This document shows positions 6,188 to 62,262 of a DNA stretch of 64,000 nt, piece by piece (position 1 is the stretch's first letter; every line of letters begins with the position of its first letter). Origin of the DNA: an uncultured virus (IMG/VR IMGVR_UViG_3300043427_002950) (lineage: Duplodnaviria; Heunggongvirae; Uroviricota; Caudoviricetes); the IMG/VR virus record IMGVR_UViG_3300043427_002950, positions 62,001 through 126,000 of that record, one strand, 5' to 3'. The notes beneath the pieces are model-generated. The model did not search any database. It was given only the letters and a program-made list of their open reading frames with translations, and was not told where the DNA came from. Position numbers and translations under genes: made by a program.

Positions 6188-6556
6188 ATGGCAGCAATTG
6201 CACTTAATAAATTTAGAACAATTAGAACAAGAGTTACAACAAATAATGTTGGAATTTATACTTGTCCTATTGGTGTTGCTAGTATTATTATTAATTGGCA
6301 AATTACCAATGTTTCTACGGGAAATTCTGTTGGAATATCAAGTATAACTGCTTTACATGCAAGGGATCCAGATCCAGTGACTGGAGTTGTCAGCTTTAAA
6401 TTATCAAATGGAGTAATTATTCCTCCAAATGATGGATATAATATTGTTGGTGATGGAAGACTTGCTTTGGAAACTGGTGATGTTCTTTTCATTTCCGCAT
6501 CGGAAAATTGGAAACTTGAGTCCGTTTTAAGTGTATTAGAAACTGCAAAACAGTAA
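6188..6556 (+). CDS. Small beta-rich virion adaptor protein A (122 aa), paralog of 16621..16980
   Basis: IYTCPIG...QITNV...GRLALETGD...SVLETAK aligns with VYTAPIG...QVTNV...GKLILESGD...SILETLN. Confidence 0.75.
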   Translation: MAAIALNKFRTIRTRVTTNNVGIYTCPIGVASIIINWQITNVSTGNSVGISSITALHARDPDPVTGVVSFKLSNGVIIPPNDGYNIVGDGRLALETGDVLFISASENWKLESVLSVLETAKQ

Positions 6557-6561
6557 GATAA

Positions 6562-9258
6562 ATGACAAGAAATAGATACAACACAGGAAGATCTCTCAGA
6601 AGAGATGCAACTGGAATTACCAGTGATAGATATAGTTACATTGGATTAGATCAGGTTGAACCTCATCTTGGTGATCCTTCGGTTGGTATCGCATCTACTG
6701 GTAATAATCCGCCAGGATTGGGACTTCCAAGATCAACTTATGTTTTAGCAGCTAGACCTGGAGATCCGAGAAGATATTGGATCGATCCATTTGATTTGGA
6801 TACTGACGGCATTCAAGGTCTGCAGGGAACTCAGGGTTCTCAAGGTATGCAAGGCAATCAAGGCACCCAAGGTATGCAGGGTCTACAGGGTGCCTTGAGT
6901 AATTTCCAAGGAACCCAAGGGAGACAGGGAACTCAAGGTCTTCAGGGAAATCAAGGGAGACAAGGAACTCAAGGACTGCAAGGAGCACTTAGCAATTTCC
7001 AAGGAACTCAGGGAACAGCAAGTGGACAAGGTACTCAAGGTCTTCAAGGTCTTCAGGGAAATCAAGGAGTTCAAGGACCACAAGGAACTCAAGGATTCCA
7101 AGGGACAATAGGATCTCAGGGATACCAAGGTGTTCAAGGAATTGCAAATCAAGGTATTAGAGGAGATCAAGGTGTTCAAGGAGCTTTAAGTAATTTCCAA
7201 GGAACCCAAGGTGTTAATGGTCAACAAGGATTGCAAGGATTGCAAGGATTGTCCAACCAAGGTTTTCAGGGAATATCTGGACAAGCAGTATTTAAAGGAG
7301 ATCAAGGTGTTCAAGGTCTTCAAGGTGTTCAGGGTCCATTAAGTAATTTCCAAGGAACACAAGGAAGGCAAGGTCTTCAAGGTGTTCAAGGAGTTCAAGG
7401 TCTTCAGGGAAGGCAAGGTATTCAGGGTAATCAAGGTTTTCAAGGTGCCCAAGGATTTCCTGGAAGTGCTCAAGGAAATCAAGGAACACAGGGCGTTCAG
7501 GGACAAATTGGAAACTTCCAAGGAACTCAAGGTAGACAAGGTGCTCAAGGAGTTCAAGGAGTTCAAGGTCTTCAGGGAAGGCAAGGTGGTCAAGGAGTTC
7601 AAGGAATTCAAGGCAGTCAAGGTTTTTCAGGAACTTCTCAAGGTGTTCAAGGAACACAAGGATCCCAAGGCGTTCAAGGTCCACTAAGTAATTTCCAAGG
7701 TGTCCAAGGTCTTCAAGGTCTTTCTGGATCTTTACAAGGTCTTCAAGGAGAACAAGGCGTTCAAGGACTGCAAGGACTGCAAGGAAATCAAGGCGTTTCT
7801 GGTCAAAGTTTTAATCAAGGTCTCCAAGGAAGGCAAGGTCTTCAAGGAGTTCAAGGTCAAATTGGAAACTTCCAAGGAACTCAAGGTGTTCAAGGAAGAC
7901 AAGGAACACAAGGAACTATAGGAAATCAGGGATTCCAAGGAAGACAAGGAATACAAGGAACACAAGGTTTTCAAGGTGTTCAGGGGAATCAAGGTGTTCA
8001 GGGAAATCAAGGTATTCAAGGAAGAATTGGAACTTCTATTATTATTATTGGAACAGCCGCAAATATTTCCTCACAGTCTCCAGATCCATCCACTTACTTA
8101 ACAGCTACTTTTCCAGGTGCTCAACCAGGAAATGGTGTTGTTGATAGTGTTACCAATGAAGTCTGGGTATTGCAAGCCAATGGAACAACATGGGTTAATG
8201 TTGGAGATATTTCTATACAAGGTCTTCAAGGTCTTCAAGGTCCTCAAGGTGCTCAAGGATTCCAAGGAACACAAGGTAGACAAGGTGTTCAAGGTGTTCA
8301 AGGCATTCAAGGACTTCAAGGAAGACAAGGAAATCAAGGTGTTCAAGGTCTTCAAGGAATTCAAGGTCTTGCGGCAGCAAAACAATTGGGTGGTAAATTC
8401 TTATATGATACTGTACAGACAATAGCAGATCCTACTGGAAATGGATATTTTAGACTTAGCACTGCCTGGACTGGAGCTTTTACTCAGTTTGCAATAGACG
8501 AAACTGATTTTGAAGGAAATTCAATTGTATCGATACTGGATGCCGTTGAGGCTGTAAATAATCCACAAAAAGCTATCTTTACGTTTACAAAAATTGGAGA
8601 CTCTAATACTTTTGCTTCATTCTTTGTTACCAATAGAATTACTGATGGAGCAGCATTCAGAAGTTATTTTGTAACGAAAATTAGTTCTAATGGATCTCCC
8701 GTTCTTAATGATCAATTTAATTTAGTAGTGTCATTTGTAGGTGCTCAAGGAACCCAAGGCAGACAAGGACTTCAAGGATTACAGGGAGTTCAAGGAAATC
8801 AAGGAGTTCAGGGCCTTCAGGGTGGAAACTCTGAAACATCTTTGATTGTTGCACTTGGAGATGAATTTACAAACATTGGAATTGGAACAAGTGTAGTAAC
8901 ATTTAGGGTTCCATTTAAGTGTAGAATTACAGAACCACCAACAATTTCACTTTCATCTGCTGCAGTTGTTGGAATTACCAGTGTAGATGTTTTATATGCA
9001 GATAGAAATGCTAGCCCAGCTTCCTTTAATTCTTGGACAAGTATATACTCAAGTCGGACAACAGTAGCAAATATCGCAGTAGGAAACTACCAAAGTGAAA
9101 CTGGATTTGTTAATACCCCAACTCTCTTAAATTCACCAACAACATTCCCAAATCAAGTTTTAAATAGAAATGATCAATTAAGATTTGATATTACTGGAAT
9201 AGGAACTGGAGGAAAGGGATTGAAAGCAATAGTTTATTATTCTAAGGTATCACCATAA
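6562..9258 (+). CDS. Collagen-like (Gly-X-Gln) fibre protein A with interruptions and globular domains (898 aa)
   Basis: Three G-X-Q blocks separated by globular segments; C-terminal beta domain ending LNRNDQLRFDITGIG. Confidence 0.85.
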   Translation: MTRNRYNTGRSLRRDATGITSDRYSYIGLDQVEPHLGDPSVGIASTGNNPPGLGLPRSTYVLAARPGDPRRYWIDPFDLDTDGIQGLQGTQGSQGMQGNQGTQGMQGLQGALSNFQGTQGRQGTQGLQGNQGRQGTQGLQGALSNFQGTQGTASGQGTQGLQGLQGNQGVQGPQGTQGFQGTIGSQGYQGVQGIANQGIRGDQGVQGALSNFQGTQGVNGQQGLQGLQGLSNQGFQGISGQAVFKGDQGVQGLQGVQGPLSNFQGTQGRQGLQGVQGVQGLQGRQGIQGNQGFQGAQGFPGSAQGNQGTQGVQGQIGNFQGTQGRQGAQGVQGVQGLQGRQGGQGVQGIQGSQGFSGTSQGVQGTQGSQGVQGPLSNFQGVQGLQGLSGSLQGLQGEQGVQGLQGLQGNQGVSGQSFNQGLQGRQGLQGVQGQIGNFQGTQGVQGRQGTQGTIGNQGFQGRQGIQGTQGFQGVQGNQGVQGNQGIQGRIGTSIIIIGTAANISSQSPDPSTYLTATFPGAQPGNGVVDSVTNEVWVLQANGTTWVNVGDISIQGLQGLQGPQGAQGFQGTQGRQGVQGVQGIQGLQGRQGNQGVQGLQGIQGLAAAKQLGGKFLYDTVQTIADPTGNGYFRLSTAWTGAFTQFAIDETDFEGNSIVSILDAVEAVNNPQKAIFTFTKIGDSNTFASFFVTNRITDGAAFRSYFVTKISSNGSPVLNDQFNLVVSFVGAQGTQGRQGLQGLQGVQGNQGVQGLQGGNSETSLIVALGDEFTNIGIGTSVVTFRVPFKCRITEPPTISLSSAAVVGITSVDVLYADRNASPASFNSWTSIYSSRTTVANIAVGNYQSETGFVNTPTLLNSPTTFPNQVLNRNDQLRFDITGIGTGGKGLKAIVYYSKVSP

Positions 9259-10842: not shown

Positions 10843-11184
10843 ATGTCAGTTGCTGTTGTAAATATAAGTTTGGAAAAAGGCACTGATTTTAGTGCTACAT
10901 TTAATGTGTCTGGACCAGATAATGGTCCTGTTTCTTTAGTTAATTATGACGCAGTTTCCAAAATTAGAAAGCATCCAACAGCAATAAGATCAAAATCATT
11001 TACCACGGAAGTAATTGGAAATGTAAATTCTCCATCAGTAAAAATCTCGATGGGGAGAACTGATACCGCTGATTTATCTTCTGGTAGAAATTATTTTGAT
11101 GTTTTTCTTGTCGATCAAAATACTGGTTATACTGTTAAGGTCGTTGAAGGATCAATCATAGTAAACGATAGTACATCACTATGA
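10843..11184 (+). CDS. Virion structural protein (BppU N-terminal-like beta domain)
   Basis: NISLEKGTDFSATF...KIRKH...TADLSSGRNYFDV...KVVEGSIIV pattern; late promoter upstream. Confidence 0.6.
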   Translation: MSVAVVNISLEKGTDFSATFNVSGPDNGPVSLVNYDAVSKIRKHPTAIRSKSFTTEVIGNVNSPSVKISMGRTDTADLSSGRNYFDVFLVDQNTGYTVKVVEGSIIVNDSTSL

Positions 11185-12575: not shown

Positions 12576-15500
12576 ATGACAAGACCAATAATTCGTATTA
12601 AACGATCAACAACACCAGGGAGTAAGCCAAGTTTAGGACAACTCCAATTAGGTGAATTGGCTTTAAATACTAATGATATTGAGTTATATGCTCGTAGAGA
12701 AAGAGTAGGATTTGTTCCCGATATAGTTAGAATTGGTGCTGGTGCAACAGTAACCAATATTTTATACGTAACAAAGGACGGAAACGATAATAATACTGGA
12801 AAAAAACTTGGAGATGCAAAGGCAACGATTAAATCTGCAGTAGATGCATCAGAAACTGGAACGGTTATAAAAGTAAGTGCTGGTATTTATTTGGAAGACA
12901 ATCCAATAGCACTGCCAAGTCAGGTTAGTGTAGTTGGAGACAGTTTAAGAGAAGTTACAGTATCACCTTTAAATCCAGATAAGGATTTATTTTATGTTGC
13001 AAATGGAAATTATGTTGCGGAGATGTCATATACTGGATCTTTAAATCCAGGAAAAGCAATTTTTACGTTTAACCCAGAAAAGGTAGGTTATTTTAATCAA
13101 TCTCCATACATTCAAAACTGCACAAATTTTATTCCGAATAGTATAGGAATGAAGGTCGATGGTACTTATGCCATAGGACCTTTAAAATCAATGGTTCTTG
13201 ACTCATATACTCAATATAATCAAGGTGGTATAGGAGTTTCTATTACAAATGAAGGGTATGCTCAGCTAGTTTCTTTATTTACAATTTGTGACGACATAGC
13301 AGTTTTTTGTGGGTCGGGTGGTGCTTGCGATCTAACAAACTCAAACTCTTCTTTTGGAAATTATGCTTTAGTTGCAGATGGTGTTGGTCCAAAAAAATAC
13401 ACTGGAACAATAGTTGAGGGAGGTACAAGTACAGATCAATTTGTAATTGATTTAACTGTACCAACTTTAAATATCACGAATGCAATATATGATCATACAA
13501 CTGGAATTTTAACTGCATATACGGACCAAGAACACAATTTTAAAGTAGGTGTTGGAGTTTCAATTGTGGGACTTGCATTTACTTGCAGTTCTGATGGAGG
13601 GATCACACAACTTGAATATCCTACGGGCAATTATGGGTACATATTTGAACCGTTTATTGTTGCTCCTGGAAGATATTATGATGCATATAATTCTATTCAA
13701 GCAAATAAGAAAGAAATTCAAGATAAGGCACTAGCATCTATTGCATTAAATTATCCAGATTTTTACTTACCTGGAGATGAGCAAACAACTGATAGATCTA
13801 GATATTATGATTCATATCGTCTTATTAAGCAAAATCAAAGAGAAATTGCTGACAAAGCAGCATCAAAACTTGCAGTAGGATTTCCATCAGACTTCTATTT
13901 TCCAGATGAACCAGAAACTAATGAGAGATCAAGATTTTATGATGGATCTGGTTTAATTCAAAAGAATAGACAAGAAATTATTGATAAGTCACTTGCTGCT
14001 GTAGCAATTGCTCATTCAGATTTTTATTTTCCAGGCGATAATCAAACAAATGCAAGATCAAGATATGCAGATTCATATCGTTTAATTCAAAATAATAAAG
14101 ACGTAATAGTTTCTATTGCTTTTACTTCCGCAGTCAATAATCCAGGATTTGCTGGGACTGACTTTGCTGCTGTAATGGATAAATGTAAGAGAGATACTGG
14201 TTTATTCATTGATGCAGTTTCGACAGATATATTCACAGGTGGTAATAGTTATTCTATAGCATTTGCAAAATTTTATTTTGATGCTGATGGAAATCCTACA
14301 AATAATGGATTACTTGGAGAAGAATCAGAATCCATTTATGTTTTTGAACAAGCAAAGCAGTTGATGAAAGATGCTATTACCAACACTCTTGTCGGTGCTG
14401 CTTATAGTGATTTAACAATAACTGTAGACCCACTAACTGGATCAAACACAAATCCAAACTCATGTGCAAACGTTCGTTCCAATATTGATAACTTAGTTGG
14501 AATCATAACTTCGGTAATTGATAATGGAAATTTACTGTCACTTCCACCACAAAATTTTGGGTATTATGTTCAAGATAGTACTAATGTATTACCTCATACT
14601 TTAGCAGGAATAGGAACAACCAGTTCTCCTGGAGGATTAAAATGTGCGAGAGATCTTGGATATTTTATAGATGCAATTGCAACAGATTTATTTACAGGTG
14701 GAAATAAGTATTCAAGAGATTTTACATTACAGTATTTTGATGCTCAAACTGGTCAACCAATTTCCAATGGATTGATTAATGAAGAATCTCAATCAATAAC
14801 TGCATTTAATGCCGCAAGAGATCTATTTAAAAGAGCAGTTACAAATCAATTAAATATCAAAACTATTGGAATATCTTCTGGAACTGCAGAATATCTTGGA
14901 GCAGGTAATGATATTCCAGTTTTTCCATCAGGAAATGCAAATTCTTGTATTGATGTTCAAAATAATATAGACACATTAGTTGCAATATCCACTAATGTAA
15001 TTGGAGTTGGAACAACCGCATTCTTATCAACATTCAATGAGAACCTGGGAATTTCTACAACCAATAAGTGCATAAGGGATACGAGATATTTTGTCGATGC
15101 AATCGCAACTGATTTATTTGTTGGCGGAAATTATTATGCTTCTGAGTTTACAAAGCAATATTTTAATAATGTTGGTTCTGCAACAACGGCATTGCTCGGG
15201 GAAGAATCAGAATCTGTTTATGTATTCATGCAGGCATCTGAATTTTCAAAGAAAGCAATTACTAATCAATTAAATATACAAGATCTTACTCTCACTACAG
15301 ATTCAAATCCAGGAATAGGAACTACTTCTAATAAAAATCCAACATCTTGTACAAATGTTAGAAATACAATTGATACTCTTACTGGAATTGTTACTTCTGT
15401 AATTGTTTCCTCAGATCTTACTGAACTGCCACCAATAAATGAAGGAATATATTCCTTAGGATTATCAAAGTGTCGTAGAGATATTGGTTATTTAATTGAT

Positions 15501-16616
15501 TATGTATCTCTTGATGTAAGAGATTATACTAATGAGAACACAATTGACGCAACTAAATTTTATTTTAATTTGGATGGATCTCTCGATAACAGCATTGAGA
15601 ATGAAATACCACAAACAATCACTTCTTTTGAATCTGCAAGAGATTACATGAAACTTGCAATTAATAATCAGTTGAATAAGAAGAATTTTGATTTAATTGA
15701 AGATCCAACTACTCAGAGTAATAATAGTGAAAACTCTTGCTCTAATGTTAAATCTTATATTGATAATTTAGTTGGAATAGTTACAACTGCAATTTTTAAT
15801 GCAGATTTGAATATATCTCCTCTTCCATCAGTATCTGCAGCAAGTACTGTGTTTTCAGCATATGTTGGCACTGCTCCATTTGAACACTATTATGTTTCTG
15901 GTGGAACTGCAAAGATTGATGTCATAAGACCTTTCAACGGACAAGTAGTTTATTTTGAGGATCTTTATTATACTGTAAAAAATGTAATTATTTTAAATTC
16001 AGGAAGTGGATATTCGGAACCTCCAACATTATCTTTTGAATCTCCAGAGGTTGAATGGGGAATTCCAGCTCAAGCGGTTGCTGAAATACGAAGTGGATCA
16101 ATAACAAATATTGAACTCGTATCCAGTGGAAGAGGATATAAGATTCCTCCAAAAATTACAATTACTGGACCTCAAAGTGGAATAAATACAGCTACAGCAA
16201 TAGTAGAACTTACTCCAACTTATTATGTAATTACTGAAGCAACAGAAGTTTCTTCAGGAATTACAACAATAACTGTAGGAGAAAATGTTCCTTATTTTGT
16301 TGGTGTTGGAACAGAAGTTCCATTTTATAAACAAAGTAGAGTATTGGCATCTGGACATTCACTTGAATATATTGGTACGGGAATTGATATAGATAAATGT
16401 TTGCCTAGATTGGGAGGAGTTCCTATTCCAGAAAATGAAACTGATGCTCGTAATGGTGGATTAGTTGTTTACACAAGCACAGATCAAGCAGGAAACTTTA
16501 AAATTGGTGACGGTGTAATTATTAATCAAACTACAGGATCTATTACTGGTGATTTTTATTCCAAGAGTTTGTTTGCAACTATGACACCATTTATCCTAGC
16601 ATTAGGAGGAGATTAA
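12576..16616 (+). CDS. Virion structural/tail scaffold protein B (1346 aa)
   Basis: Shares core blocks with 1680..6185 (DAKATIKSA, CTNF..NSIGMKVDG, DSYTQYNQGGIGVSITN, QAGNF.IG, TPFILALG). Has four helical repeat units. ATAAATA at 12523. Confidence 0.75.
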   Translation: MTRPIIRIKRSTTPGSKPSLGQLQLGELALNTNDIELYARRERVGFVPDIVRIGAGATVTNILYVTKDGNDNNTGKKLGDAKATIKSAVDASETGTVIKVSAGIYLEDNPIALPSQVSVVGDSLREVTVSPLNPDKDLFYVANGNYVAEMSYTGSLNPGKAIFTFNPEKVGYFNQSPYIQNCTNFIPNSIGMKVDGTYAIGPLKSMVLDSYTQYNQGGIGVSITNEGYAQLVSLFTICDDIAVFCGSGGACDLTNSNSSFGNYALVADGVGPKKYTGTIVEGGTSTDQFVIDLTVPTLNITNAIYDHTTGILTAYTDQEHNFKVGVGVSIVGLAFTCSSDGGITQLEYPTGNYGYIFEPFIVAPGRYYDAYNSIQANKKEIQDKALASIALNYPDFYLPGDEQTTDRSRYYDSYRLIKQNQREIADKAASKLAVGFPSDFYFPDEPETNERSRFYDGSGLIQKNRQEIIDKSLAAVAIAHSDFYFPGDNQTNARSRYADSYRLIQNNKDVIVSIAFTSAVNNPGFAGTDFAAVMDKCKRDTGLFIDAVSTDIFTGGNSYSIAFAKFYFDADGNPTNNGLLGEESESIYVFEQAKQLMKDAITNTLVGAAYSDLTITVDPLTGSNTNPNSCANVRSNIDNLVGIITSVIDNGNLLSLPPQNFGYYVQDSTNVLPHTLAGIGTTSSPGGLKCARDLGYFIDAIATDLFTGGNKYSRDFTLQYFDAQTGQPISNGLINEESQSITAFNAARDLFKRAVTNQLNIKTIGISSGTAEYLGAGNDIPVFPSGNANSCIDVQNNIDTLVAISTNVIGVGTTAFLSTFNENLGISTTNKCIRDTRYFVDAIATDLFVGGNYYASEFTKQYFNNVGSATTALLGEESESVYVFMQASEFSKKAITNQLNIQDLTLTTDSNPGIGTTSNKNPTSCTNVRNTIDTLTGIVTSVIVSSDLTELPPINEGIYSLGLSKCRRDIGYLIDYVSLDVRDYTNENTIDATKFYFNLDGSLDNSIENEIPQTITSFESARDYMKLAINNQLNKKNFDLIEDPTTQSNNSENSCSNVKSYIDNLVGIVTTAIFNADLNISPLPSVSAASTVFSAYVGTAPFEHYYVSGGTAKIDVIRPFNGQVVYFEDLYYTVKNVIILNSGSGYSEPPTLSFESPEVEWGIPAQAVAEIRSGSITNIELVSSGRGYKIPPKITITGPQSGINTATAIVELTPTYYVITEATEVSSGITTITVGENVPYFVGVGTEVPFYKQSRVLASGHSLEYIGTGIDIDKCLPRLGGVPIPENETDARNGGLVVYTSTDQAGNFKIGDGVIINQTTGSITGDFYSKSLFATMTPFILALGGD

Positions 16617-16620
16617 AGAA

Positions 16621-16980
16621 ATGGCATTAGCACTTAATGTATTCCAAACTGTAACAAAAGTTTTACAGACAACACAACAAGAAGTTTACACAGCTCCAAT
16701 TGGATATACTGGGGTTTTTTTGTTAGCGCAGGTAACAAATGTTGGCAATGTTTCTGAAGATGTTACTGTTTTACATAGGAGAATAGTTTCTGGATCTCCA
16801 GTAGATACTGAATTGATGAAAAGTTATCCAGTTTCTGGGACAGACACTTTAAATCTTTTTGGTGGAAAATTAATTTTAGAAAGTGGAGATAGATTGGTAA
16901 TATCATCAAGTAATAATGCGGGAATAGTTTCTGGAACTAATTTAAAATTTGTAGGAAGTATATTAGAAACTCTTAACTAA
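16621..16980 (+). CDS. Small beta-rich virion adaptor protein B (119 aa)
   Basis: Paralog of 6188..6556 in the same relative gene position. Confidence 0.75.
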   Translation: MALALNVFQTVTKVLQTTQQEVYTAPIGYTGVFLLAQVTNVGNVSEDVTVLHRRIVSGSPVDTELMKSYPVSGTDTLNLFGGKLILESGDRLVISSSNNAGIVSGTNLKFVGSILETLN

Positions 16981-16982
16981 CA

Positions 16983-19900
16983 ATGGCAAAAAATTACCTA
17001 AGCAATCGTCAACGCAGAGTTAATATTGGTATTGTTTCATATACGGAAAATGAAACAGTACTGTCGATTGCTGCTGGTAAAGTTGGAGTAGGAACAAATA
17101 ATGCAATATTAGATTTACATGTAGAAGGAAAAGGATATTTTTCAGATGCAGTTGCAATAGGAACAGAAACTCCTCAGGGAGCTGCTTTATGGGTCGATGG
17201 AGATGGATATTTTACGGGGGTAGTTACTGCAAGAACATTTTTTGCAGGTCCAACAGAAATTACTGGGGGGCAAATTGTTGATGAAGCTGCAATTCAAAAG
17301 TTAAGGACACAAACCTTATTTGTTGCTGGAATTACAACATTTTTAAATGGAACTGTAAGTATTGGAGTAGGAACTGGAGTAACAACTGGAACACCAAATC
17401 AGTTATTTCAAGTTTATAGTGGAGCATATATTAATGGTTCTGTAGGAATAGGAACAACTATTGTATATTCCGACTCCAAATTACATGTTGCTGGCAGTTT
17501 GAAATTAGACGGAACAGTATACGATAAAGATGGATTTGGTGGGAATTTAGATGACCTTCTTTATTCAAATGGCGATGGAACTGTTTCTTGGAAAACTGCT
17601 TTACAAGGTACTCAGGGTACTCAAGGTCTTCAAGGCGCATTAAGTAATTTTCAAGGAACTCAGGGTGTTCAAGGAGTTCAAGGTCTCCAAGGTAATCAGG
17701 GAGTTCAAGGTCTTCAAGGTCTTCAAGGACACCAGGGAACTCAAGGAGTTCAAGGATTGCAAGGAAATCAGGGAGTTCAAGGTCTTCAAGGTCTTCAAGG
17801 ACACCAGGGAACTCAAGGAGTTCAAGGAGTTCAAGGTCTCCAAGGTAATCAGGGAGTTCAAGGTCTTCAAGGTCTTCAAGGACACCAGGGAACTCAAGGA
17901 GTTCAAGGATTGCAAGGAGATCAAGGTGTTCAAGGTCTTCAGGGAAATCAAGGAGTCCAGGGAACACAAGGTCTTCAGGGTTTCCAAGGAAATCAGGGAG
18001 TTCAAGGTCTTCAAGGTCTTCAAGGACACCAGGGAACTCAAGGAGTTCAAGGATTGCAAGGAGATCAAGGTGTTCAAGGTCTTCAAGGTCTTCAAGGACA
18101 CCAGGGAACTCAAGGAGTTCAAGGATTGCAAGGAGATCAAGGTGTTCAAGGTCTTCAAGGTCTTCAAGGACACCAGGGAACTCAAGGAGTTCAAGGATTG
18201 CAAGGAGATCAAGGTGTTCAAGGTCTTCAGGGAAATCAAGGAGTCCAGGGAACACAAGGTCTTCAGGGTTTCCAAGGAAATCAGGGAGTTCAAGGAATAC
18301 AAGGTCTTCAGGGAAATCAAGGAGTTCAAGGTCTTCAAGGAAATCAGGGAGTCCAGGGAGTCCAGGGAGTCCAAGGTCTCCAGGGAAATCAAGGAGTTCA
18401 AGGTCTTCAAGGAAATCAGGGAGTCCAGGGAGTCCAGGGAGTCCAAGGTCTCCAAGGAAATCAGGGACTCCAAGGCAATCAGGGAGTCCAGGGAGTCCAA
18501 GGTCTTCAGGGAAATCAAGGAGTTCAAGGAACTCAGGGACTCCAAGGCAATCAGGGAGTCCAGGGAGTCCAAGGTCTTCAGGGAAATCAAGGAGTTCAAG
18601 GAACTCAGGGACTCCAAGGCAATCAGGGAGTCCAGGGAGTCCAAGGTCTTCAGGGAAATCAAGGAGTTCAAGGAACCCAAGGTCTTCAAGGCAATCAAGG
18701 AGTTCAAGGAACACAAGGTCTTCAAGGTAATCAAGGAGTCCAAGGAACCCAAGGTCTTCAAGGCAATCAAGGAGTTCAGGGCAATCAAGGAACCCAAGGT
18801 GTTCAGGGTTTACAAGGAAATCAAGGAGTTCAAGGAAATCAGGGACTCCAAGGTAATCAAGGAGTTCAAGGAACTCAGGGACTCCAAGGTAATCAAGGAG
18901 TTCAAGGAACTCAGGGACTCCAAGGTAATCAAGGAGTACAAGGAACACAAGGTCTTCAAGGTAATCAAGGAGTTCAAGGTCTTCAAGGTAATCAAGGAGT
19001 CCAGGGAACTCAGGGACTTCAAGGTAATCAAGGAGTTCAAGGAAATCAGGGAGTCCAAGGAATACAAGGTCTTCAAGGTTTCCAAGGTGTCCAAGGTGTT
19101 CAAGGTCTCCAAGGAAATCAGGGAGTCCAAGGAATACAAGGTCTTCAAGGTTTCCAAGGTGTCCAAGGTGTTCAAGGTCTCCAAGGAAATCAGGGAGTCC
19201 AAGGAATACAAGGTCTTCAAGGTTTCCAAGGTGTCCAAGGTGTTCAAGGTCTCCAAGGAAATCAAGGTGTTCAAGGTGTTCAAGGTCTCCAAGGTTTCCA
19301 AGGAACTCAAGGAACCCAAGGAGTTCAAGGTCTTCAAGGAAATCAGGGAGTTCAAGGAACACAAGGTCTTCAAGGTTTCCAAGGTGTTCAAGGAACACAA
19401 GGACTTCAGGGGAATCAGGGAGTTCAAGGAACACAAGGTCTTCAAGGTTTCCAAGGTGTTCAAGGAACACAAGGACTTCAGGGGAATCAGGGAGTTCAAG
19501 GAACACAAGGTCTTCAAGGTTTCCAAGGCGTTCAGGGTGTCCAAGGATTACAGGGAAATCAAGGAGTCCAAGGTCTCCAAGGAAATCAGGGAGTTCAAGG
19601 TGTTCAAGGAACTCAGGGTCTCCAAGGCAATCAAGGGGTTCAAGGAACACAGGGTCTTCAAGGTTTCCAAGGTGCTCAAGGAACTCAGGGTGTACAAGGT
19701 CTCCAGGGAAATCAGGGAGTTCAAGGAACTCAGGGATTACAAGGAAATCAGGGAGTTCAAGGTGTTCAGGGTCTCCAGGGAAATCAGGGAGTTCAAGGAG
19801 TTCAAGGTCTCCAAGGAAATCAAGGAGTTCAAGGTGTTCAAGGAACCCAAGGTCTCCAAGGCAATCAAGGAGTCCAAGGTGTCCAAGGTGTCCAAGGATT

Positions 19901-21524
19901 ACAAGGAAATCAGGGAGTCCAAGGTGCCCAAGGATTACAAGGAAATCAGGGAGTCCAAGGTGTCCAAGGATTACAAGGAAATCAGGGAGTCCAAGGTGTC
20001 CAAGGTCTCCAGGGAAATCAAGGAGTTCAAGGTGTTCAAGGAACCCAAGGTCTCCAGGGAAATCAGGGAGTTCAAGGAACTCAGGGATTACAAGGAAATC
20101 AGGGAGTTCAAGGAGTTCAAGGTCTCCAAGGAAATCAAGGAGTTCAAGGTGTTCAAGGAACCCAAGGTCTCCAAGGCAATCAAGGAGTTCAAGGAGTTCA
20201 AGGTGTTCAGGGTCTCCAAGGAAATCAGGGAGTTCAAGGTGTTCAAGGAACCCAAGGTCTCCAAGGTAATCAAGGAGTTCAAGGAGTTCAAGGTCTCCAA
20301 GGAAATCAAGGTGTCCAAGGTGTCCAAGGAAATCAGGGTGTCCAAGGTGTTCAAGGTCTTCAAGGAAATCAGGGTGTCCAAGGTGTTCAAGGTCTTCAAG
20401 GAAATCAGGGTGTCCAAGGTGTTCAAGGTCTCCAGGGAGTTCAAGGAAATCAAGGAGTTCAGGGAGTCCAAGGTCTCCAAGGTAATCAAGGTGTTCAAGG
20501 TCTTCAAGGAAATCAGGGTGTCCAAGGTGTCCAAGGTCTCCAGGGAGTTCAAGGTCTCCAAGGTGTTCAAGGTCTTCAAGGAAATCAGGGAGTCCAAGGT
20601 GTCCAAGGTCTTCAAGGAAATCAAGGAGTTCAAGGTGTCCAAGGGCTCCAAGGAAATCAAGGAGTTCAAGGTGTCCAAGGTGTCCAAGGATTACAAGGAA
20701 ATCAGGGAGTCCAAGGTGTCCAAGGTGTTCAAGGTCTCCAAGGAAATCAAGGAGTTCAAGGTGTCCAAGGTGTCCAAGGATTACAAGGAAATCAGGGAGT
20801 CCAAGGTGTCCAAGGATTACAAGGAAATCAGGGTGTTCAAGGCGTTCAAGGTCTTCAAGGAAATCAGGGAGTCCAAGGTGTCCAAGGATTACAAGGAAAT
20901 CAGGGTGTTCAAGGCGTTCAAGGTCTTCAAGGAAATCAGGGAGTCCAAGGTGTTCAAGGTTTACAAGGAAATCAGGGAGTTCAAGCAACTCAAGGACTCC
21001 AGGGTGTTCAAGGATTGCAAGGTCTTCAAGGCGCACTTAGCAATTTCCAGGGAACACAAGGAACACAAGGAAATCAGGGATTACAAGGAACACAAGGAAA
21101 ACAAGTATCAATTCCAGATCAAACAGTCATAATTGCATTTGAAGAGGTGTTTGATGGGTCTAGAACTACATTTACTCCATATGATAAAGTATTATTTGCA
21201 AATCAAGGATATTCTGTTGGATCTGGAAATCTTGCACGATTCATAAATAATGAGATAGACAGTTTGGCAAGATTTATACTTTCTGTCGGTGGAATTATTC
21301 AAGAACCAGATCCATCAAATAATCGTGGATTTAACACCAATCAAATTGGTGGTGGTGGAAATAATAAAGCAGCAGACCCAATTACTATCGCATTTGTTGA
21401 GGCACCAAAAGTTACAGATTCCTTCTTTGGGTATGCTGTTAAATCTACAAATTCCCCAACAAATATAAATCAATTTGGAACAGTTACAGATTCTATAGTT
21501 TATTCAATCATATTCGGAGTATAA
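16983..21524 (+). CDS. Very long collagen-like (Gly-X-Gln) fibre protein B (1513 aa)
   Basis: N-terminal VGIGT fibre repeats, ~1160 residues of G-X-Q, C-terminal domain ending DSIVYSIIFGV. Confidence 0.9.
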   Translation: MAKNYLSNRQRRVNIGIVSYTENETVLSIAAGKVGVGTNNAILDLHVEGKGYFSDAVAIGTETPQGAALWVDGDGYFTGVVTARTFFAGPTEITGGQIVDEAAIQKLRTQTLFVAGITTFLNGTVSIGVGTGVTTGTPNQLFQVYSGAYINGSVGIGTTIVYSDSKLHVAGSLKLDGTVYDKDGFGGNLDDLLYSNGDGTVSWKTALQGTQGTQGLQGALSNFQGTQGVQGVQGLQGNQGVQGLQGLQGHQGTQGVQGLQGNQGVQGLQGLQGHQGTQGVQGVQGLQGNQGVQGLQGLQGHQGTQGVQGLQGDQGVQGLQGNQGVQGTQGLQGFQGNQGVQGLQGLQGHQGTQGVQGLQGDQGVQGLQGLQGHQGTQGVQGLQGDQGVQGLQGLQGHQGTQGVQGLQGDQGVQGLQGNQGVQGTQGLQGFQGNQGVQGIQGLQGNQGVQGLQGNQGVQGVQGVQGLQGNQGVQGLQGNQGVQGVQGVQGLQGNQGLQGNQGVQGVQGLQGNQGVQGTQGLQGNQGVQGVQGLQGNQGVQGTQGLQGNQGVQGVQGLQGNQGVQGTQGLQGNQGVQGTQGLQGNQGVQGTQGLQGNQGVQGNQGTQGVQGLQGNQGVQGNQGLQGNQGVQGTQGLQGNQGVQGTQGLQGNQGVQGTQGLQGNQGVQGLQGNQGVQGTQGLQGNQGVQGNQGVQGIQGLQGFQGVQGVQGLQGNQGVQGIQGLQGFQGVQGVQGLQGNQGVQGIQGLQGFQGVQGVQGLQGNQGVQGVQGLQGFQGTQGTQGVQGLQGNQGVQGTQGLQGFQGVQGTQGLQGNQGVQGTQGLQGFQGVQGTQGLQGNQGVQGTQGLQGFQGVQGVQGLQGNQGVQGLQGNQGVQGVQGTQGLQGNQGVQGTQGLQGFQGAQGTQGVQGLQGNQGVQGTQGLQGNQGVQGVQGLQGNQGVQGVQGLQGNQGVQGVQGTQGLQGNQGVQGVQGVQGLQGNQGVQGAQGLQGNQGVQGVQGLQGNQGVQGVQGLQGNQGVQGVQGTQGLQGNQGVQGTQGLQGNQGVQGVQGLQGNQGVQGVQGTQGLQGNQGVQGVQGVQGLQGNQGVQGVQGTQGLQGNQGVQGVQGLQGNQGVQGVQGNQGVQGVQGLQGNQGVQGVQGLQGNQGVQGVQGLQGVQGNQGVQGVQGLQGNQGVQGLQGNQGVQGVQGLQGVQGLQGVQGLQGNQGVQGVQGLQGNQGVQGVQGLQGNQGVQGVQGVQGLQGNQGVQGVQGVQGLQGNQGVQGVQGVQGLQGNQGVQGVQGLQGNQGVQGVQGLQGNQGVQGVQGLQGNQGVQGVQGLQGNQGVQGVQGLQGNQGVQATQGLQGVQGLQGLQGALSNFQGTQGTQGNQGLQGTQGKQVSIPDQTVIIAFEEVFDGSRTTFTPYDKVLFANQGYSVGSGNLARFINNEIDSLARFILSVGGIIQEPDPSNNRGFNTNQIGGGGNNKAADPITIAFVEAPKVTDSFFGYAVKSTNSPTNINQFGTVTDSIVYSIIFGV
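17607..21100 (+). repeat. 9-bp-period coding tandem repeat (GGN-NNN-CAR) with higher-order perfect repeats
   Basis: Directly visible; e.g. a 72-bp unit repeated three times exactly at 19041..19256. Confidence 0.95.
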
Positions 21525-21530
21525 TTAAAA

Positions 21531-24506
21531 ATGGCAAGAAGATTTGAAAAATTATATAAATTTGATCCTGTTGCTGGAACATTAAAGATTCCAGGACATA
21601 TTGAACTTGAAGATTTACTTTTAGTTGTTAATACAACAAGAAATGTTATAATTTATAATTTTTCAGATCCCTCTAAAGGCGCAACATGGGAACATGATCA
21701 TTTAGGGGATGAAGATTACCCAGAAGCAATTGATGGGACATGCACTTTTAATTTTTTTGCGGATACATCTGGGATGTCTGCGGAAGATAGATTGCAAGTT
21801 GTAGTTGAAGATCAAAGAAGAGGAATTATTTCAAGACCTCCAGAATTTGGTTTAGACTCTATAGAAAGGCAAAGAGTTTCTAGTCCAGAAGCATTAATTG
21901 ACGCGGATTTTGAGTATGGAATTCAATTAACAAAATGGGATAACTTAGGATTAAATAGAAATATTCCTTCTTTTTATGAATTTCCAAAACCAACTCAAGA
22001 TATTAATAACATAGTTTCAAATGGGGTTTCTCCATTTTCATTGATTACTGTAACTTATAATGCTGGTGTTGCATCAACTGATGTTCCTGTTACTGGTGGA
22101 GTTATATCTGTAAGGGGAACTGGAAATCCACTTGCAGATGGACTTTTTATTGTTGAAAGTGGAGATTCTGTTACAGCAAAAACTTCATCTTATAGAGCAA
22201 AAGGAGTAATCTCTGTTGGATCTTCTTTACTCAACAATTATACTCAAGCAAAAGAGGGTGGAATTTTTGAAAGAGGGGTTTTGCCAGTTACGAGTTATCA
22301 AACTGGAGCAACTTCTGGTATTGTTACCGTTACATTTTCTGGATTTCATGGTTTAGTTCCAGGTTCTCCAATTTTAGTTGCAGATAACAGAGCTGGAAGA
22401 CAAACTCATGAAGGAAGATTTTATGTTCGTCAAGTTGTAGACGGAAGATCAATTAATTATGATTCTGGAAACACTCTAACGGACGTTCCAAACACAACAA
22501 ATACAGCAGTCTATGCAATAAATGACAGTTTCTTTGAACATGCACCTTTTGATGGTGGAGTAAAAACTGGATCATTATTGCCCGTTCATGGACTAGAAGC
22601 AAAAAGACAAACAAAAAGATATTTTAGATATCAAGCAGGAAAGGGAATTCTTTTCTCTACTGGAGCACTTCTTGCTCCATCTTTTGATGTAGATGATTTG
22701 GAAATTATTAATAATAAAACACAGATAAAAATAACAACTTCAGATTTTCATGGATTACAAACTGGAGCAGGAATTAAACTTATTGGAATTAGTACAACTG
22801 CTTCTGGAGATTCCTCATTAATCAACAAATATTATACAGTTTCTGGAATTACCAGTGAAAAGGCTATTATAGTAGATGCTGCTGCTGGTATTGCTGGAAC
22901 ATCAATAGTTACTGTAGATTCAAAAGTTGGAATTACAACATGGGCAGGAGCTGCAGTAAGACTTGGAATATTTGATGATTTTAATGGAATGTATTGGGAA
23001 TTTGATGGTCAAAAAATTTATATTGCTAAAAGGTCATCAACATACCAATTATCTGGATTTGCATCCATGAATGTTGGAAGTACAGAAATATTTGGTATTG
23101 GCACTAAATTTGCAGATCAACTTATAGTCGGAGATTCCTTACAAATTAAAGGACAGAGATATCAAGTTGTAGGAATTTCAAGTAATACTACGTGCCATGT
23201 TTCACCTCCATATAGAGGAGCTTCTTTCTCAGGTTCTAAAATATGTTTAATACAAGATAAAAGAGTACCGCAAGAAGATTTCAACTTTGATACTATAAAT
23301 GGAAAAGGACCATCTCATTTTAATTTAAAAACTGATGGAGACGCATTTAGAAAAATGCAGATGTTTGGAATACAATATTCTTGGTATGGTGCTGGATATA
23401 TTGATTATGCTATTCGTGGTCCATTAGGTGAATGGATTATTGCACATCGTATTGCAAATAATAATAAAAATACAGAAGCATACATGAGATCTGGAAATCT
23501 TCCAGCAAGATATGAAGTGTCTCATAATACTGCAAGAAGTAAATTAACTAATCAGACAGGATTTACAACTACAACTTTGAATTTGAAGGATGCTAATGAA
23601 TTCCCAACTCCACTTCCTGGATATCCAGAATATGTTGAAGTCACCAGTAAACAAACAATTAGTGGATCTGATAATTATATTCATGAGATTATGAGTTACA
23701 CTGGAAAATCAGGTAATACTTTAACTGGAGTTACAACTTCTACAAACTATAGTATTTTCTTAAGTGGATCAGAAAGAACATTTTACGGTCCTGGTGGAAT
23801 TGCTGAAGCAGGAAAAAGATTACAATCATGGAATCATCCAGAACATAGTTCAGTAATATTAATCAATACTACTTGTGCTCCAACAATTACTCACTGGGGG
23901 TCATCGGTAATTATGGATGGAGGATTTGATGGGGACCCTACTATTCAATTTTCATTAACGAGAAATACAATTGATGTTGCTGGTGGAGCACAAGTATTAG
24001 TTGGAGTACTTAGACCAGCTCCTTCAGTTTCCGATACTTTAATTGGCAATCTTGGAGAAAGGGAACTAATTAATAGATCTCTTATTAAGTTTGGAAATTT
24101 ATATGTATCTTCAAAACTTGGAACAGGAAATATTCAACCAACAACAATTGAAGTTATTGGAATATTAAATTCTACAGGATATGAAAATACATCTTGGATT
24201 TCTGCAAATCGAGTAACAATTGGAACAAATAATTATTATCAACCATCTTTTGTTCAATATAGTACTACCGAAACTCTTATTCCAAGAGATGGTGAAATTC
24301 TTTTTAGATTCCAATTAAGATCTGATGAGAGTAAAATTTTTGACCTTACTGGAATTAAAGAATTGCAAAATAGCATATTGGGTGGAAATAGAACATATCC
24401 AGATGGTCCAGAAGTTCTTGCAGTGGTTATAAACAACCCAGATGGTGGCGCATCAGATAATGCTATTGTTGATATCTCTCTTAGTTGGACGGAGGCACAA
24501 GCATAA
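21531..24506 (+). CDS. Large virion structural/tail protein (991 aa)
   Basis: YKFDP...LLLVVNTTRNVIIYNFSDP N-terminus, LIDADFEYG, RQTKRYFRYQAGKG, YSWYGAG, ends SWTEAQA; these recur in cyanomyophage structural proteins. Confidence 0.7.
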   Translation: MARRFEKLYKFDPVAGTLKIPGHIELEDLLLVVNTTRNVIIYNFSDPSKGATWEHDHLGDEDYPEAIDGTCTFNFFADTSGMSAEDRLQVVVEDQRRGIISRPPEFGLDSIERQRVSSPEALIDADFEYGIQLTKWDNLGLNRNIPSFYEFPKPTQDINNIVSNGVSPFSLITVTYNAGVASTDVPVTGGVISVRGTGNPLADGLFIVESGDSVTAKTSSYRAKGVISVGSSLLNNYTQAKEGGIFERGVLPVTSYQTGATSGIVTVTFSGFHGLVPGSPILVADNRAGRQTHEGRFYVRQVVDGRSINYDSGNTLTDVPNTTNTAVYAINDSFFEHAPFDGGVKTGSLLPVHGLEAKRQTKRYFRYQAGKGILFSTGALLAPSFDVDDLEIINNKTQIKITTSDFHGLQTGAGIKLIGISTTASGDSSLINKYYTVSGITSEKAIIVDAAAGIAGTSIVTVDSKVGITTWAGAAVRLGIFDDFNGMYWEFDGQKIYIAKRSSTYQLSGFASMNVGSTEIFGIGTKFADQLIVGDSLQIKGQRYQVVGISSNTTCHVSPPYRGASFSGSKICLIQDKRVPQEDFNFDTINGKGPSHFNLKTDGDAFRKMQMFGIQYSWYGAGYIDYAIRGPLGEWIIAHRIANNNKNTEAYMRSGNLPARYEVSHNTARSKLTNQTGFTTTTLNLKDANEFPTPLPGYPEYVEVTSKQTISGSDNYIHEIMSYTGKSGNTLTGVTTSTNYSIFLSGSERTFYGPGGIAEAGKRLQSWNHPEHSSVILINTTCAPTITHWGSSVIMDGGFDGDPTIQFSLTRNTIDVAGGAQVLVGVLRPAPSVSDTLIGNLGERELINRSLIKFGNLYVSSKLGTGNIQPTTIEVIGILNSTGYENTSWISANRVTIGTNNYYQPSFVQYSTTETLIPRDGEILFRFQLRSDESKIFDLTGIKELQNSILGGNRTYPDGPEVLAVVINNPDGGASDNAIVDISLSWTEAQA

Positions 24507-25969: not shown

Positions 25970-25971
25970 TC

Positions 25972-26526
25972 ATGCCATATCAAACTTTATTTCCTGATGC
26001 AATTTTAGCTTCTGCAAATTATACAGCACCTGTAACTGTTGGTAATATTGATAATGGTGTAAGTAGTGCCGATACAGTATATCTCGATGCAAATGGAGGT
26101 GGACAAACTCAAGTTCGCGTGTCCTTTCCAACTCCAACACAAACTTTCGATAGACCTGGATTAGTTGGAATTCAAACATTCAGATGTTCTTTTAGAAGAA
26201 GAAATGCAGCTAATAGTGGAACGGGAGGTCAAAACGTAACAGCAACATTGACTTTATTTGAAAATGGAACAACAAGAAATATTTCCGCATCGGCAACAAA
26301 CACTGGAGCAACTAATGTAACAGCAGTACTTGAAGTAAATGCAAGTACAATTAATCCAAGTCTTGCAACAGGTTCTGGAGTAGAATTGCTGGTAGCACAA
26401 ACTGCTGGAGGTGTTGGAGGTGGAGCTGCTACTAGATCCTATGTTGAAGTTAATGAAATTGAATGGATATCACAAACTCCACAACCTTATACTTACCAAT
26501 CTTATAATTGGGGAGAAGTATCTTAG
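25972..26526 (+). CDS. Hypothetical beta-rich protein, possible fibre tip/adhesin
   Basis: T/G/A/N-rich, last gene of the structural run, directly after the fibre gene. Confidence 0.5.
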   Translation: MPYQTLFPDAILASANYTAPVTVGNIDNGVSSADTVYLDANGGGQTQVRVSFPTPTQTFDRPGLVGIQTFRCSFRRRNAANSGTGGQNVTATLTLFENGTTRNISASATNTGATNVTAVLEVNASTINPSLATGSGVELLVAQTAGGVGGGAATRSYVEVNEIEWISQTPQPYTYQSYNWGEVS

Positions 26527-62179: not shown

Positions 62180-62262
62180 TGGACAGTTGGGCAAGTGTCC
62201 ACTGCGGACCTTGCCCACCCCACCTTTGCCCTATACTTACTTCAGTTCAAACAACCACCCAC

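Follow-up and report, generated by a model that had tools for sequence, protein, structure and literature searches.

A predicted nest of phycobiliprotein-like globin domains in a tail fiber-type protein of an uncultured cyanophage

Scaffold B and its repeated segments

The DNA analyzed here, referred to as the window, is a 64,000-nucleotide stretch covering bases 62001 to 126000 of the 127,876-base record of an uncultured virus (IMG/VR IMGVR_UViG_3300043427_002950), judged to be 61% complete. The window carries two paralogous genes for large structural proteins, scaffold A and scaffold B. Scaffold B (P0001), the subject of this study, lies at positions 12576 to 16616 on the plus strand and encodes a tail fiber- or baseplate-type structural protein of 1,346 amino acids (aa). 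A previous sequence-only reading had described four short tandem segments (N) in this protein followed by four longer ones (C), and had proposed a Russian-doll arrangement in which each helical domain was inserted into the same loop of the previous copy. The eight coordinates given there for scaffold B were all in frame with the gene, and each corresponded to the first residue of a repeat. The N segments are 40 to 44 aa each and the C segments 111 to 153 aa each. They are listed below, with helices and partners as assigned in the following sections.

13671 to 13799, plus strand: repeat N1 (R366 to aa 408), helices A and B of the outermost unit; partner C4; matched by 3wct_C
13800 to 13931, plus strand: repeat N2 (R409 to aa 452), helices A and B of unit 2; partner C3, by elimination
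13932 to 14060, plus strand: N3 (R453 to aa 495), helices A and B of unit 3; partner C2; matched by 8wix_B
14061 to 14180, plus strand: N4 (R496 to aa 535), helices A and B of the innermost unit; joined directly to C1; phycobiliprotein and globin matches over model residues 154 to 315 (N4 plus C1)
14181 to 14639, plus strand: C1 (K536 to aa 688), helices E to H of the innermost unit; motif Cys at 14184 to 14186, second Cys at 14463
14640 to 15065, plus strand: C2 (K689 to aa 830), helices E to H of unit 3; motif Cys at 14643, second Cys at 14946
15066 to 15467, plus strand: C3 (K831 to aa 964), helices E to H of unit 2; motif Cys at 15069, second Cys at 15348
15468 to 15800, plus strand: C4 (K965 to aa ∼1075), helices E to H of the outermost unit; motif Cys at 15471, second Cys at 15738

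The significance of the repeats was assessed by local alignment of segments with BLOSUM62 against 200 shuffles. All six pairs of C segments gave z scores of 24.2 to 43.0, with none of the shuffles reaching the observed score, and C4 was the most diverged of the four. The first three N segments were similarly alike (pairwise z, 20.9 to 25.8). N4 scored 9.0 and 9.3 against N1 and N2, respectively, and 3.6 against N3, a score reached by 1 of the 200 shuffles. Exactly eight Cys residues occur between aa 360 and 1080, two in each unit. Tandem Repeats Finder identified no DNA-level repeat in scaffold B, and the copies are therefore considered old and diverged. BLASTP self-comparison of the two scaffolds at default settings returned no off-diagonal self matches, only matches of A with B.

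Predicted structure and pairing of the segments

Residues 340 to 1090 were modeled as a monomer with AlphaFold2 (AF2) from 74 aligned sequences carrying four N segments followed by four C segments (N4C4), giving a predicted local distance difference test score (pLDDT) of 82.5 and a predicted template modeling score (pTM) of 0.83. Each N segment was modeled as a kinked pair of helices (pLDDT, 90 to 95; for N1, model residues 26 to 53 at 94 to 95) and each C segment as four helices, with a turn of ∼9 residues leading from N4 into C1. The predicted structure contains a globin-like fold made up of the helices A, B, E, F, G, and H.

The AF2 models were searched against 48,161 structure chains. For the full model, the top eight matches were all phycobiliproteins, an outcome repeated with the truncated model described below; globin-coupled sensors and hemoglobins came next in the ranking. 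Nearly all matches fell on model residues ∼125 to 320, which correspond to N4 plus C1. They included the phycoerythrin beta chain 5aqd_M (Z score, 16.1; root mean square deviation [rmsd], 3.0; 149 of 184 residues aligned), the bilin domain of ApcE (4xxi_A; Z score, 14.0), and allophycocyanin (8or7_A; Z score, 13.9). This phycobiliprotein-like identity of the unit had escaped the sequence-only reading. Residues 34 to 164 of the chain 1b8d_A map onto N4 plus C1, and mappings of this type therefore place helices A and B in the N-half, helices E to H in the C-half, and the insertion point in the loop between helices B and E (B/E loop).

The outer segments were matched as well. Hemoglobin 3wct_C aligned with N1 and C4 (Z score, 6.0; rmsd, 4.1; 129 of 150 residues) over model residues 24 to 736, a range that begins with N1 and reaches the last helix of C4. 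A second AF2 model was truncated to aa 360 to 830, which retains N1 to N4, C1, and C2 and removes C3 and C4. In this model, hemoglobin 8wix_B aligned with N3 and C2 (Z score, 6.0; rmsd, 4.0; 142 of 146 residues) over residues 91 to 455, a stretch that opens with N3 and closes with C2. Scores of this size are common for helical models, and the 3wct_C and 8wix_B matches therefore count as support rather than proof. On truncation, the pLDDT of the two helices fell from 95 and 94 to 85 and 80 in N1 and from 91 and 95 to 81 and 85 in N2; the corresponding values were 92 and 90 before and 92 and 92 after in N3, and 92 and 94 before and 94 and 95 after in N4. A decrease limited to N1 and N2 upon removal of C3 and C4 is in the direction that nesting would predict and, at the level of the models, supports it. 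Globin-fold matches spanning N4 plus C1, N3 plus C2, and N1 plus C4 across the two models thus bear out the expectation that structure prediction would pair N4 with the first C segment and N1 with the last.

Balance of N and C segments in relatives

A database search with aa 340 to 1090 found 564 proteins at an E value of ≤1e−5 among 8000 scored candidates, and the best 120 were taken. Hidden Markov models (HMMs) of the N and C segments were then scanned over 121 proteins, comprising the two of the window and 119 relatives. In 113 of the 121, the runs of N and C segments were of equal length in every block, the architectures being N4C4 (n = 77), N3C3N2C2 (n = 17), N5C5 (n = 7), N3C3 (n = 7), N6C6 (n = 3), and N4C4N3C3 (n = 2). 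The eight exceptions included scaffold A, whose N-halves the first N HMM fails to detect, and five fragments, of which P0018, P0022, and P0023 start midunit and P0117 and P0115 lack the conserved C terminus. P0033 (N4C5) and P0048, also among the exceptions, are complete proteins.

A search of 1.84 billion representative sequences gave 453 matches at an E value of ≤0.001, of which 150 were taken. One of these relatives, P0122 (2,927 aa), reads N10 C7 N2 C5; although its blocks differ in length, the word balances when N and C segments are treated as opening and closing brackets (12 N and 12 C, ten deep). This is what a nested, branched chain would predict and what a rule of equal blocks would not. 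With a second N profile added, 186 of 267 proteins were balanced bracket words up to 10 deep (114 of the 121 close relatives; among the representatives, 72 of 146). Distant representatives instead contain a contiguous unit in plain tandem, (NC)n, with n of up to 22. The gaps between C matches were bimodal (0 to 19 aa and 30 to 49 aa), and those of 30 to 49 aa had a consensus resembling an N-half. The comparison of N and C counts across homologs that had been suggested as a check thus came out in favor of matched halves. With tblastn, the region was identified in 308 of 50,697 phage records, every one of them from a cyanophage of Synechococcus or Prochlorococcus or another marine cyanophage, and the matched proteins carried tail or structural annotations.

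Relationship to phycobiliproteins and the Cys-x-Arg-Asp motif

Sequence comparisons pointed in the same direction as the structural matches. The phycobiliprotein family PF00502 scored above its cutoff in seven of eight relatives tested (27.2 to 48.6 bits), and in P0122 and P0078 the best stretch (profile positions 32 to 107) crosses the innermost N-to-C junction. Many homologs also carry a precomputed PF00502 match. When a profile built from 74 homologs was compared with the Protein Data Bank (PDB), all 12 hits at an E value of <1 were phycocyanin or allophycocyanin chains, the best with an E value of 0.015. The kinship in sequence is weak but consistent.

In printed sequence alignments, the Cys-x-Arg-Asp motif that opens each C segment aligns with C84, R86, and D87 of phycocyanin alpha. 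In phycobiliproteins, Cys84 is the main site of bilin attachment, and Arg86 and Asp87 contact the chromophore. Conservation was assessed in 1,060 units (512 from close relatives and 548 from representatives): the Cys was retained in 99% and 98% of these, respectively, the Arg in 99% and 95%, and the Asp in 99% of both. An Asp eleven residues past the motif and one Tyr were further constant positions. The second Cys lies one residue ahead of the last helix in all four units, a position that recalls the beta-Cys153/155 site in the G-H loop. It was present in 100% of close relatives and was the majority residue in <60% of the 548 representative units.

The sequence-only reading had suggested that the two Cys residues of each unit might staple the structure. 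That suggestion did not hold up, since the first Cys aligns with the bilin attachment site and the second is not widely kept, and judging from these alignments a disulfide staple appears unlikely. Alignment of the Cys, Arg, and Asp with positions 84, 86, and 87, together with their conservation in 95 to 99% of units, argues for bilin binding over a staple.

The host domain, scaffold A, and the surrounding genes

The remaining features of the two scaffolds are as follows.

12723 to 13388, plus strand: segments common to A and B (aa 50 to 271 of B), read as a fiber body with a putative beta-helix-like fold
13443 to 13670, plus strand: first part of a small host domain (aa 290 to 365), into which the nest is inserted
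15801 to 15914, plus strand: other part of the split host domain (aa 1076 to 1113)
15909 to 16607, plus strand: conserved C-terminal fiber module (aa 1112 to 1344)
1680 to 6185: scaffold A, paralog of scaffold B (1,501 aa)
2487 to 4127, plus strand: two nested units of scaffold A, located by alignments to the C profile and the N consensus

Comparison of the paralogs by BLASTP placed the nest in its host domain. Residues 988 to 1061 of A matched 290 to 362 of B (39% identity; E value, 2e−7), and 1071 to 1086 of A matched 1098 to 1113 of B (62% identity across 16 aa; E value, 0.015). The two halves of the host domain are thus separated by 10 aa in A and by 736 aa in B, and the whole nest can therefore be regarded as an insertion in a loop of this small domain, which occurs several times within scaffold A. 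The shared fiber body was represented by two matches (A 144 to 248 with B 50 to 154, 47% identity; A 1123 to 1231 with B 170 to 271, 70% identity) and the C-terminal module by one (A 1259 to 1500 with B 1112 to 1344, 42% identity; E value, 3e−46).

The units of scaffold A sit elsewhere than those of B, between the parts of the shared body at A 144 to 248 and A 1123 to 1231. Its segments are N (aa 270 to 304), N (aa 305 to 345), C (aa 359 to 511), and C (aa 520 to 603 plus 754 to 816). Both C units, starting at aa 359 and 520, were confirmed by HMM, and the second is broken by ∼150 aa (HMM positions 2 to 79 at aa 520 to 603 and 71 to 126 at aa 754 to 816). The first N segment scored z = 9.1 against the N consensus, with none of 1,000 shuffles as high. 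The second N segment matched a consensus of the contiguous type (z = 5.1; 1 of 1,000 shuffles) and did not match that of the nested type (z = 0.4). The proposal that scaffold A contains two of each segment is thus supported, less firmly than the four of scaffold B, and the start placed there at 2488 was out of frame by one, the true start being 2487. The insert within the C-half of the outer unit (aa 604 to 753) resembles the small domain repeated in A.

Scaffold B matched the PHROG tail fiber families phrog_17885 (E value, 8.9e−182; best stretch, aa 1063 to 1344), phrog_4527 (1.4e−146), and phrog_5342 (2.8e−95). Its neighborhood contains scaffold A, two collagen-like fiber genes, and a fiber assembly-like gene, with a helicase, CobS, and other genes of T4-like cyanophages farther off. 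Relatives are labeled by their depositors as 'putative short tail fibre', 'tail protein', or 'virion structural protein' (the last, for example, in P-TIM40 and S-ShM2). Homology to tail fiber families and a position in the structural block were thus both found, and from its sequence scaffold B is predicted to be a tail fiber- or baseplate-type protein of a T4-like cyanomyovirus. By CobS comparison, the nearest of 30 isolates was the freshwater Synechococcus phage DSL-LC03 (78% identity).

Directly after each scaffold gene lies a small gene (6188 to 6556, 122 aa; 16621 to 16980, 119 aa). Both match phrog_1276, with no assigned function; the pair look paralogous and are possible fiber assembly factors. 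The collagen-like fiber proteins are encoded at 6562 to 9258 (898 aa) and 16983 to 21524 (1,513 aa). The latter falls in a GC-rich stretch (0.48) with long overlapping or antisense open reading frames (ORFs) at 17458 to 21036 (minus strand) and 17665 to 21132 (plus strand), probably arising as by-products of the Gly-X-Y repeats. Between both sets of fiber genes, positions 10843 to 11184 encode a 113-aa protein matching phrog_3304, 'L-shaped tail fiber protein assembly' (E value, 5.6e−19).

Proposed architecture and growth of the nest

The best explanation for these observations is a chain in which each domain would be divided at the B/E loop, giving an N-half of ∼43 aa and a C-half of 111 to 153 aa beginning with Cys-x-Arg-Asp, with the next domain placed inside that loop. 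The chain would go out via N1 to N4 and return via C1 to C4, pairing N4 with C1, N3 with C2, N2 with C3, and N1 with C4, and the nest as a whole would be carried in a loop of the small fiber domain. The geometry that this suggests for the nest is most likely that of a projecting stalk of four globular beads.

Nest depth among relatives ranges from 1 to 10 units and varies in matched steps of N and C. Growth was compared in 13 relatives (3 of the 7 N3C3, 7 of the 7 N5C5, and 3 of the 3 N6C6 proteins), with units typed against the four of scaffold B. The end units kept their type: the first N was N1-like in 12 of 13, the last N was N4-like in 12 of 13, and the last C was C4-like in all 13. The first C was C1-like in 8 of 13. 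Extra units were N2- or N3-like, and their C segments were nearly always C2-like. Since the extra units are of the middle types, growth appears to have proceeded by separate duplication of middle N and C segments with balance restored, and selection would be expected to restore the N/C balance after such duplications. A test of whether new units (k = 5 and k = 6) were added in mirrored or colinear fashion could not separate the two, as additions were central and the C types collapsed to C2. Contiguous tandem beads, as seen in distant relatives, probably represent the older state.

The history put forward in the sequence-only reading, in which an entire domain is inserted into the copy before it, is not supported as worded, since it does not fit the middle type of the extra units and the retention of end types. 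The mirrored pairing put forward with it is supported by the counts, the model matches, and the truncation. The balanced words, model matches, and truncation likewise describe copies of one fold, each lying in a loop of the previous one, and the outcomes that had been named as fatal to nesting (N-halves folding independently, colinear pairing, and unequal counts) were all resolved in its favor.

Distribution of units and cpeT in isolate genomes

The distribution of the units was compared with that of phage cpeT, a bilin lyase gene. Thirty isolate genomes were scored with the C-unit profile (A3) and a phage CpeT profile (A4); these were 16 phages of Sullivan et al. 2010 (PMC3037559, Table 3), 13 distinct phages selected by name from evenly spread CobS matches, and S-SRM01, which was chosen. 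Units and cpeT were both present in 22 genomes and both absent from 7 (P-SSM2, P-SSM5, S-SM2, S-SSM7, S-B05, Bellamy, and S-SRM01). One genome, DSL-LC03, had units without cpeT, and none had cpeT without units. The two were thus concordant in 29 of 30 genomes (hypergeometric probability, 23/5,852,925, ignoring kinship), the sole discordant genome being that of the window's nearest relative. When all of the P-SSM2 genome was scanned by HMM in six frames, there was no match at an independent E value of ≤0.01, with strong signals in the controls S-PM2 and P-HM2.

On the CobS tree, all seven negative phages fell in one poorly resolved clade of 14 rows, and the minimum number of changes was three for units and two for cpeT. 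Of the independent contrasts between cpeT and units, two were usable, one concordant and one without difference, which leaves no power. With only two such contrasts the association is therefore not established, and the link between cpeT and the units is suggestive, a lead only. The CobS gene of the window (62179 to 63381) grouped with that of DSL-LC03 (support, 98/91) inside the clade of the seven unit-less phages; units were therefore gained or lost more than once there. Since DSL-LC03 has no cpeT and none was found in the incomplete record of the window, the units of this lineage are probably without a phage lyase.

In S-PM2, Syn1, S-CAM3, and ACG-2014e, which form a single clade, cpeT lies 1.4 to 2.6 kb upstream of the giant ORF bearing the units (cpeT at 163964 to 164470 in S-PM2, 18166 to 18672 in S-CAM3, and 18249 to 18752 in ACG-2014e). 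In the remaining 18 genomes with cpeT, tens of kilobases separate it from the units. Syn1 is listed without a CpeT-like gene in Table 3 of Sullivan et al. 2010 (PMC3037559), yet its sequence (NC_015288.1) contains a full-length open frame at 19950 to 20462 with a PF06206 score of 119.6 bits, just upstream of the unit ORF at 21837 to 26294. Across the phage collection, units were found in 308 records, two types of cpeT in 239 and 66, and CobS in 463; these counts, which do not give the overlap, are compatible with co-occurrence. Among the IMG/VR contigs sampled via CobS, 2 of 80 reached 150 kb, and these contigs are outside the cpeT test.

The units also show some parallel with light-dependent adsorption. 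P-HM1, P-HM2, and S-PM2 carry units, and P-SSM2 does not. Adsorption of S-PM2 is reportedly light dependent, in work attributed to Jia and colleagues. According to PMC6628666, P-HM1 and P-HM2 showed zero adsorption in the dark, and P-SSM2 adsorbed in the dark, less than in light. A link between units and light that draws on these four phages is an anecdote and a lead only.

Weighing of the alternatives

Overall, residues 366 to 1075 of scaffold B very probably form a nest of four phycobiliprotein-like globin domains, a judgment that covers both the architecture and the identity of the fold. A number of results weigh against it. On the side of pairing, the fall in pLDDT of the orphaned N-halves was modest (values of 80 to 85 are still confident), partners were read from the first and last aligned residues and from pLDDT rather than from a contact map, both matches to outer units reached a Z score of only 6.0, and N2 and C3 were paired by elimination only. 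Mutual information with average product correction over the 74 N4C4 sequences gave top pairs mostly within C3; the N-C pairs among them (N1-C3, 17; N1-C4, 13; N4-C1, 6; N3-C1, 5) do not discriminate at an effective sequence number of 27. On the side of fold identity, Foldseek returned no matches in the PDB at an E value of ≤0.001 (phycoerythrin beta chains were found with a probability of 1.00 and TM scores of 0.56 to 0.72, with E values of only 0.04 to 0.2), and an ESM Atlas search with N4 plus C1 gave no usable matches. The PF00502 match to scaffold B itself, the only one in the record of the window, stayed below the 22.2-bit cutoff (20.9 bits; E value, 3.9e−4), the match of the single sequence to phycocyanin had an E value of only 0.16, and a profile of the C unit alone (A3) found no matches among PDB sequences. 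As for the counts, 81 of the 267 proteins were unbalanced by automatic detection, a set that includes fragments and missed detections, and the complete relatives P0033 and P0123 (N7C5N2C5) are off by one, with an extra C-half; these two may be evolutionary intermediates, carry a diverged and undetected N-half, or reflect assembly error or repeat collapse.

Two other arrangements of the segments would account for part of these data. The N segments could make up a separate helical stalk or coiled region, with the C segments as independent, truncated bundles in tandem and no nesting at all. The confident helices of N segments deprived of their proposed partners and the proteins with unbalanced counts would fit such a protein, but the rule of matched counts holds for k = 2 to 10, the globin matches need both N and C segments to reach 129 to 142 aligned residues, contiguous relatives have one N-half ahead of each C-half, and PF00502 alignments cross the innermost N-to-C junction; this arrangement was already disfavored and is now barely credible. 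A somewhat better case can be made for halves that pair between chains, by domain swapping in a multimeric fiber with an intertwined bundle. Tail fibers are commonly trimers, AF2 was run on the monomer only, and equal counts would fit equally well. Against this, the monomer was modeled with confidence as a nest within a single chain (pTM, 0.83), the ∼9-residue turn between N4 and C1 forces at least the innermost pair to lie within one chain, and a branched word of the kind N10 C7 N2 C5 arises naturally when nesting is intrachain; swapping between chains is judged improbable.

If intrachain nesting is accepted, what the domains do is a separate question, and an even chance is given to the nest being real and a mere building block. 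The fold would then have been taken up to serve as a stable helical bead in a stalk of adjustable length, with no bilin, and the Cys, Arg, and Asp triad would be kept for folding, for a salt bridge to the N-half, or for metal binding. The phage domains are without X-Y helices of their own and presumably without the ring assembly of true phycobiliproteins, Arg is lost in scaffold A and in some units of P-HM2 (Cys-x-Asp-Asp instead of Cys-x-Arg-Asp), DSL-LC03 has units and no cpeT, and coloured virions are not reported in the literature searched. Conversely, the triad is retained in 95 to 99% of the 1,060 units, including those of relatives at 26 to 30% identity in which most positions have drifted, and in phycobiliproteins Asp87 and Arg86 are established to contact the chromophore rather than to hold the fold. 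A phage lyase could be replaced by host lyases or by autocatalytic attachment, as ApcE attaches its bilin autocatalytically. On the evidence of the motif, it is put at somewhat below an even chance that the domains bind a bilin, which host lyases or phage CpeT would attach during infection; speaking against binding, no heme oxygenase, bilin reductase (Fe_bilin_red), or CpeT was found in the 127,876-base record, a result that is uninformative given its 61% completeness. A role of such a pigment in light-dependent adsorption would be rather unlikely. Equally doubtful is the fullest version, in which the nested domains would be real biliproteins on the virion with bilin on the motif Cys and perhaps on the second Cys, CpeT their dedicated lyase, and the stalk a light sensor or light-dependent switch for adsorption.

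Comparison with known systems and significance

The units share with phycobiliproteins a globin-type fold, a weak kinship in sequence, and a Cys-x-Arg-Asp at the same distance into helix E, and in ApcE, too, the B/E loop carries an insertion. They differ in that a phycobiliprotein is a free protein of ∼160 to 180 aa that serves in an antenna, whereas the phage domain is split and nested within a fiber protein and its bilin is putative. Phycobiliproteins are typified by a contiguous single-domain subunit that has an X-Y hairpin and assembles into alpha-beta rings; the units of scaffold B show neither the contiguous domain nor the hairpin, and in the 5aqd_M superposition the place of the hairpin is taken by the preceding N-half. 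Because the domains are split, nested in a fiber protein of 1,346 aa, and without their own X-Y hairpin, they are classed as phycobiliprotein-like rather than as phycobiliproteins.

As a fiber protein, scaffold B resembles the T4-type tail fibers of cyanomyoviruses in its PHROG families, its collagen-like and assembly-like neighbors, and the annotation of its relatives. Known fiber shafts are beta-structured or coiled-coil trimers. A nested-globin shaft or side arm, or phycobiliprotein-like domains in phage structural proteins, were not found described in a full-text literature search, in which subscription journals were sparsely covered. The closest parallel in design is Si3 of the cyanobacterial RNA polymerase subunit RpoC2, whose recursively nested sandwich-barrel hybrid motifs reach six levels and are presented as the complex extreme among 48,551 insertion events (PMC13114784, 2026); in the available part of that article, the word stems for phycobiliprotein and phage have no occurrences. 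In both systems, one fold is inserted repeatedly in its own copies to give an elongated arm. Si3 is all beta and sits in the trigger loop of RNA polymerase (beta'), whereas the phage nest is predicted to be all-alpha globin in a fiber protein; against the six levels of Si3, it is 4 deep here and 10 deep in P0122, with the number of units free to vary among close relatives. On the predicted architecture, the resemblance is an analogy of design and not membership.

Self-insertion of a domain, to a depth of four in scaffold B and of as many as 10 in a relative, is a rare mode of protein building. Since the fold is that of the light-harvesting proteins of the host and the triad is kept in more than 1,000 copies, pigmented virion proteins become a concrete hypothesis that is cheap to pursue. 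The role of cyanophage cpeT is said in PMC3037559 to be one that 'remains unresolved', and that of the phage bilin synthesis genes one that 'remains a mystery'; according to PMC10452541, T-type lyases act at the Cys-153 position in beta subunits. If true, a pigmented stalk would give these unexplained cpeT and bilin synthesis genes a substrate, and it would also provide a mechanism for the light-dependent adsorption of cyanomyoviruses.

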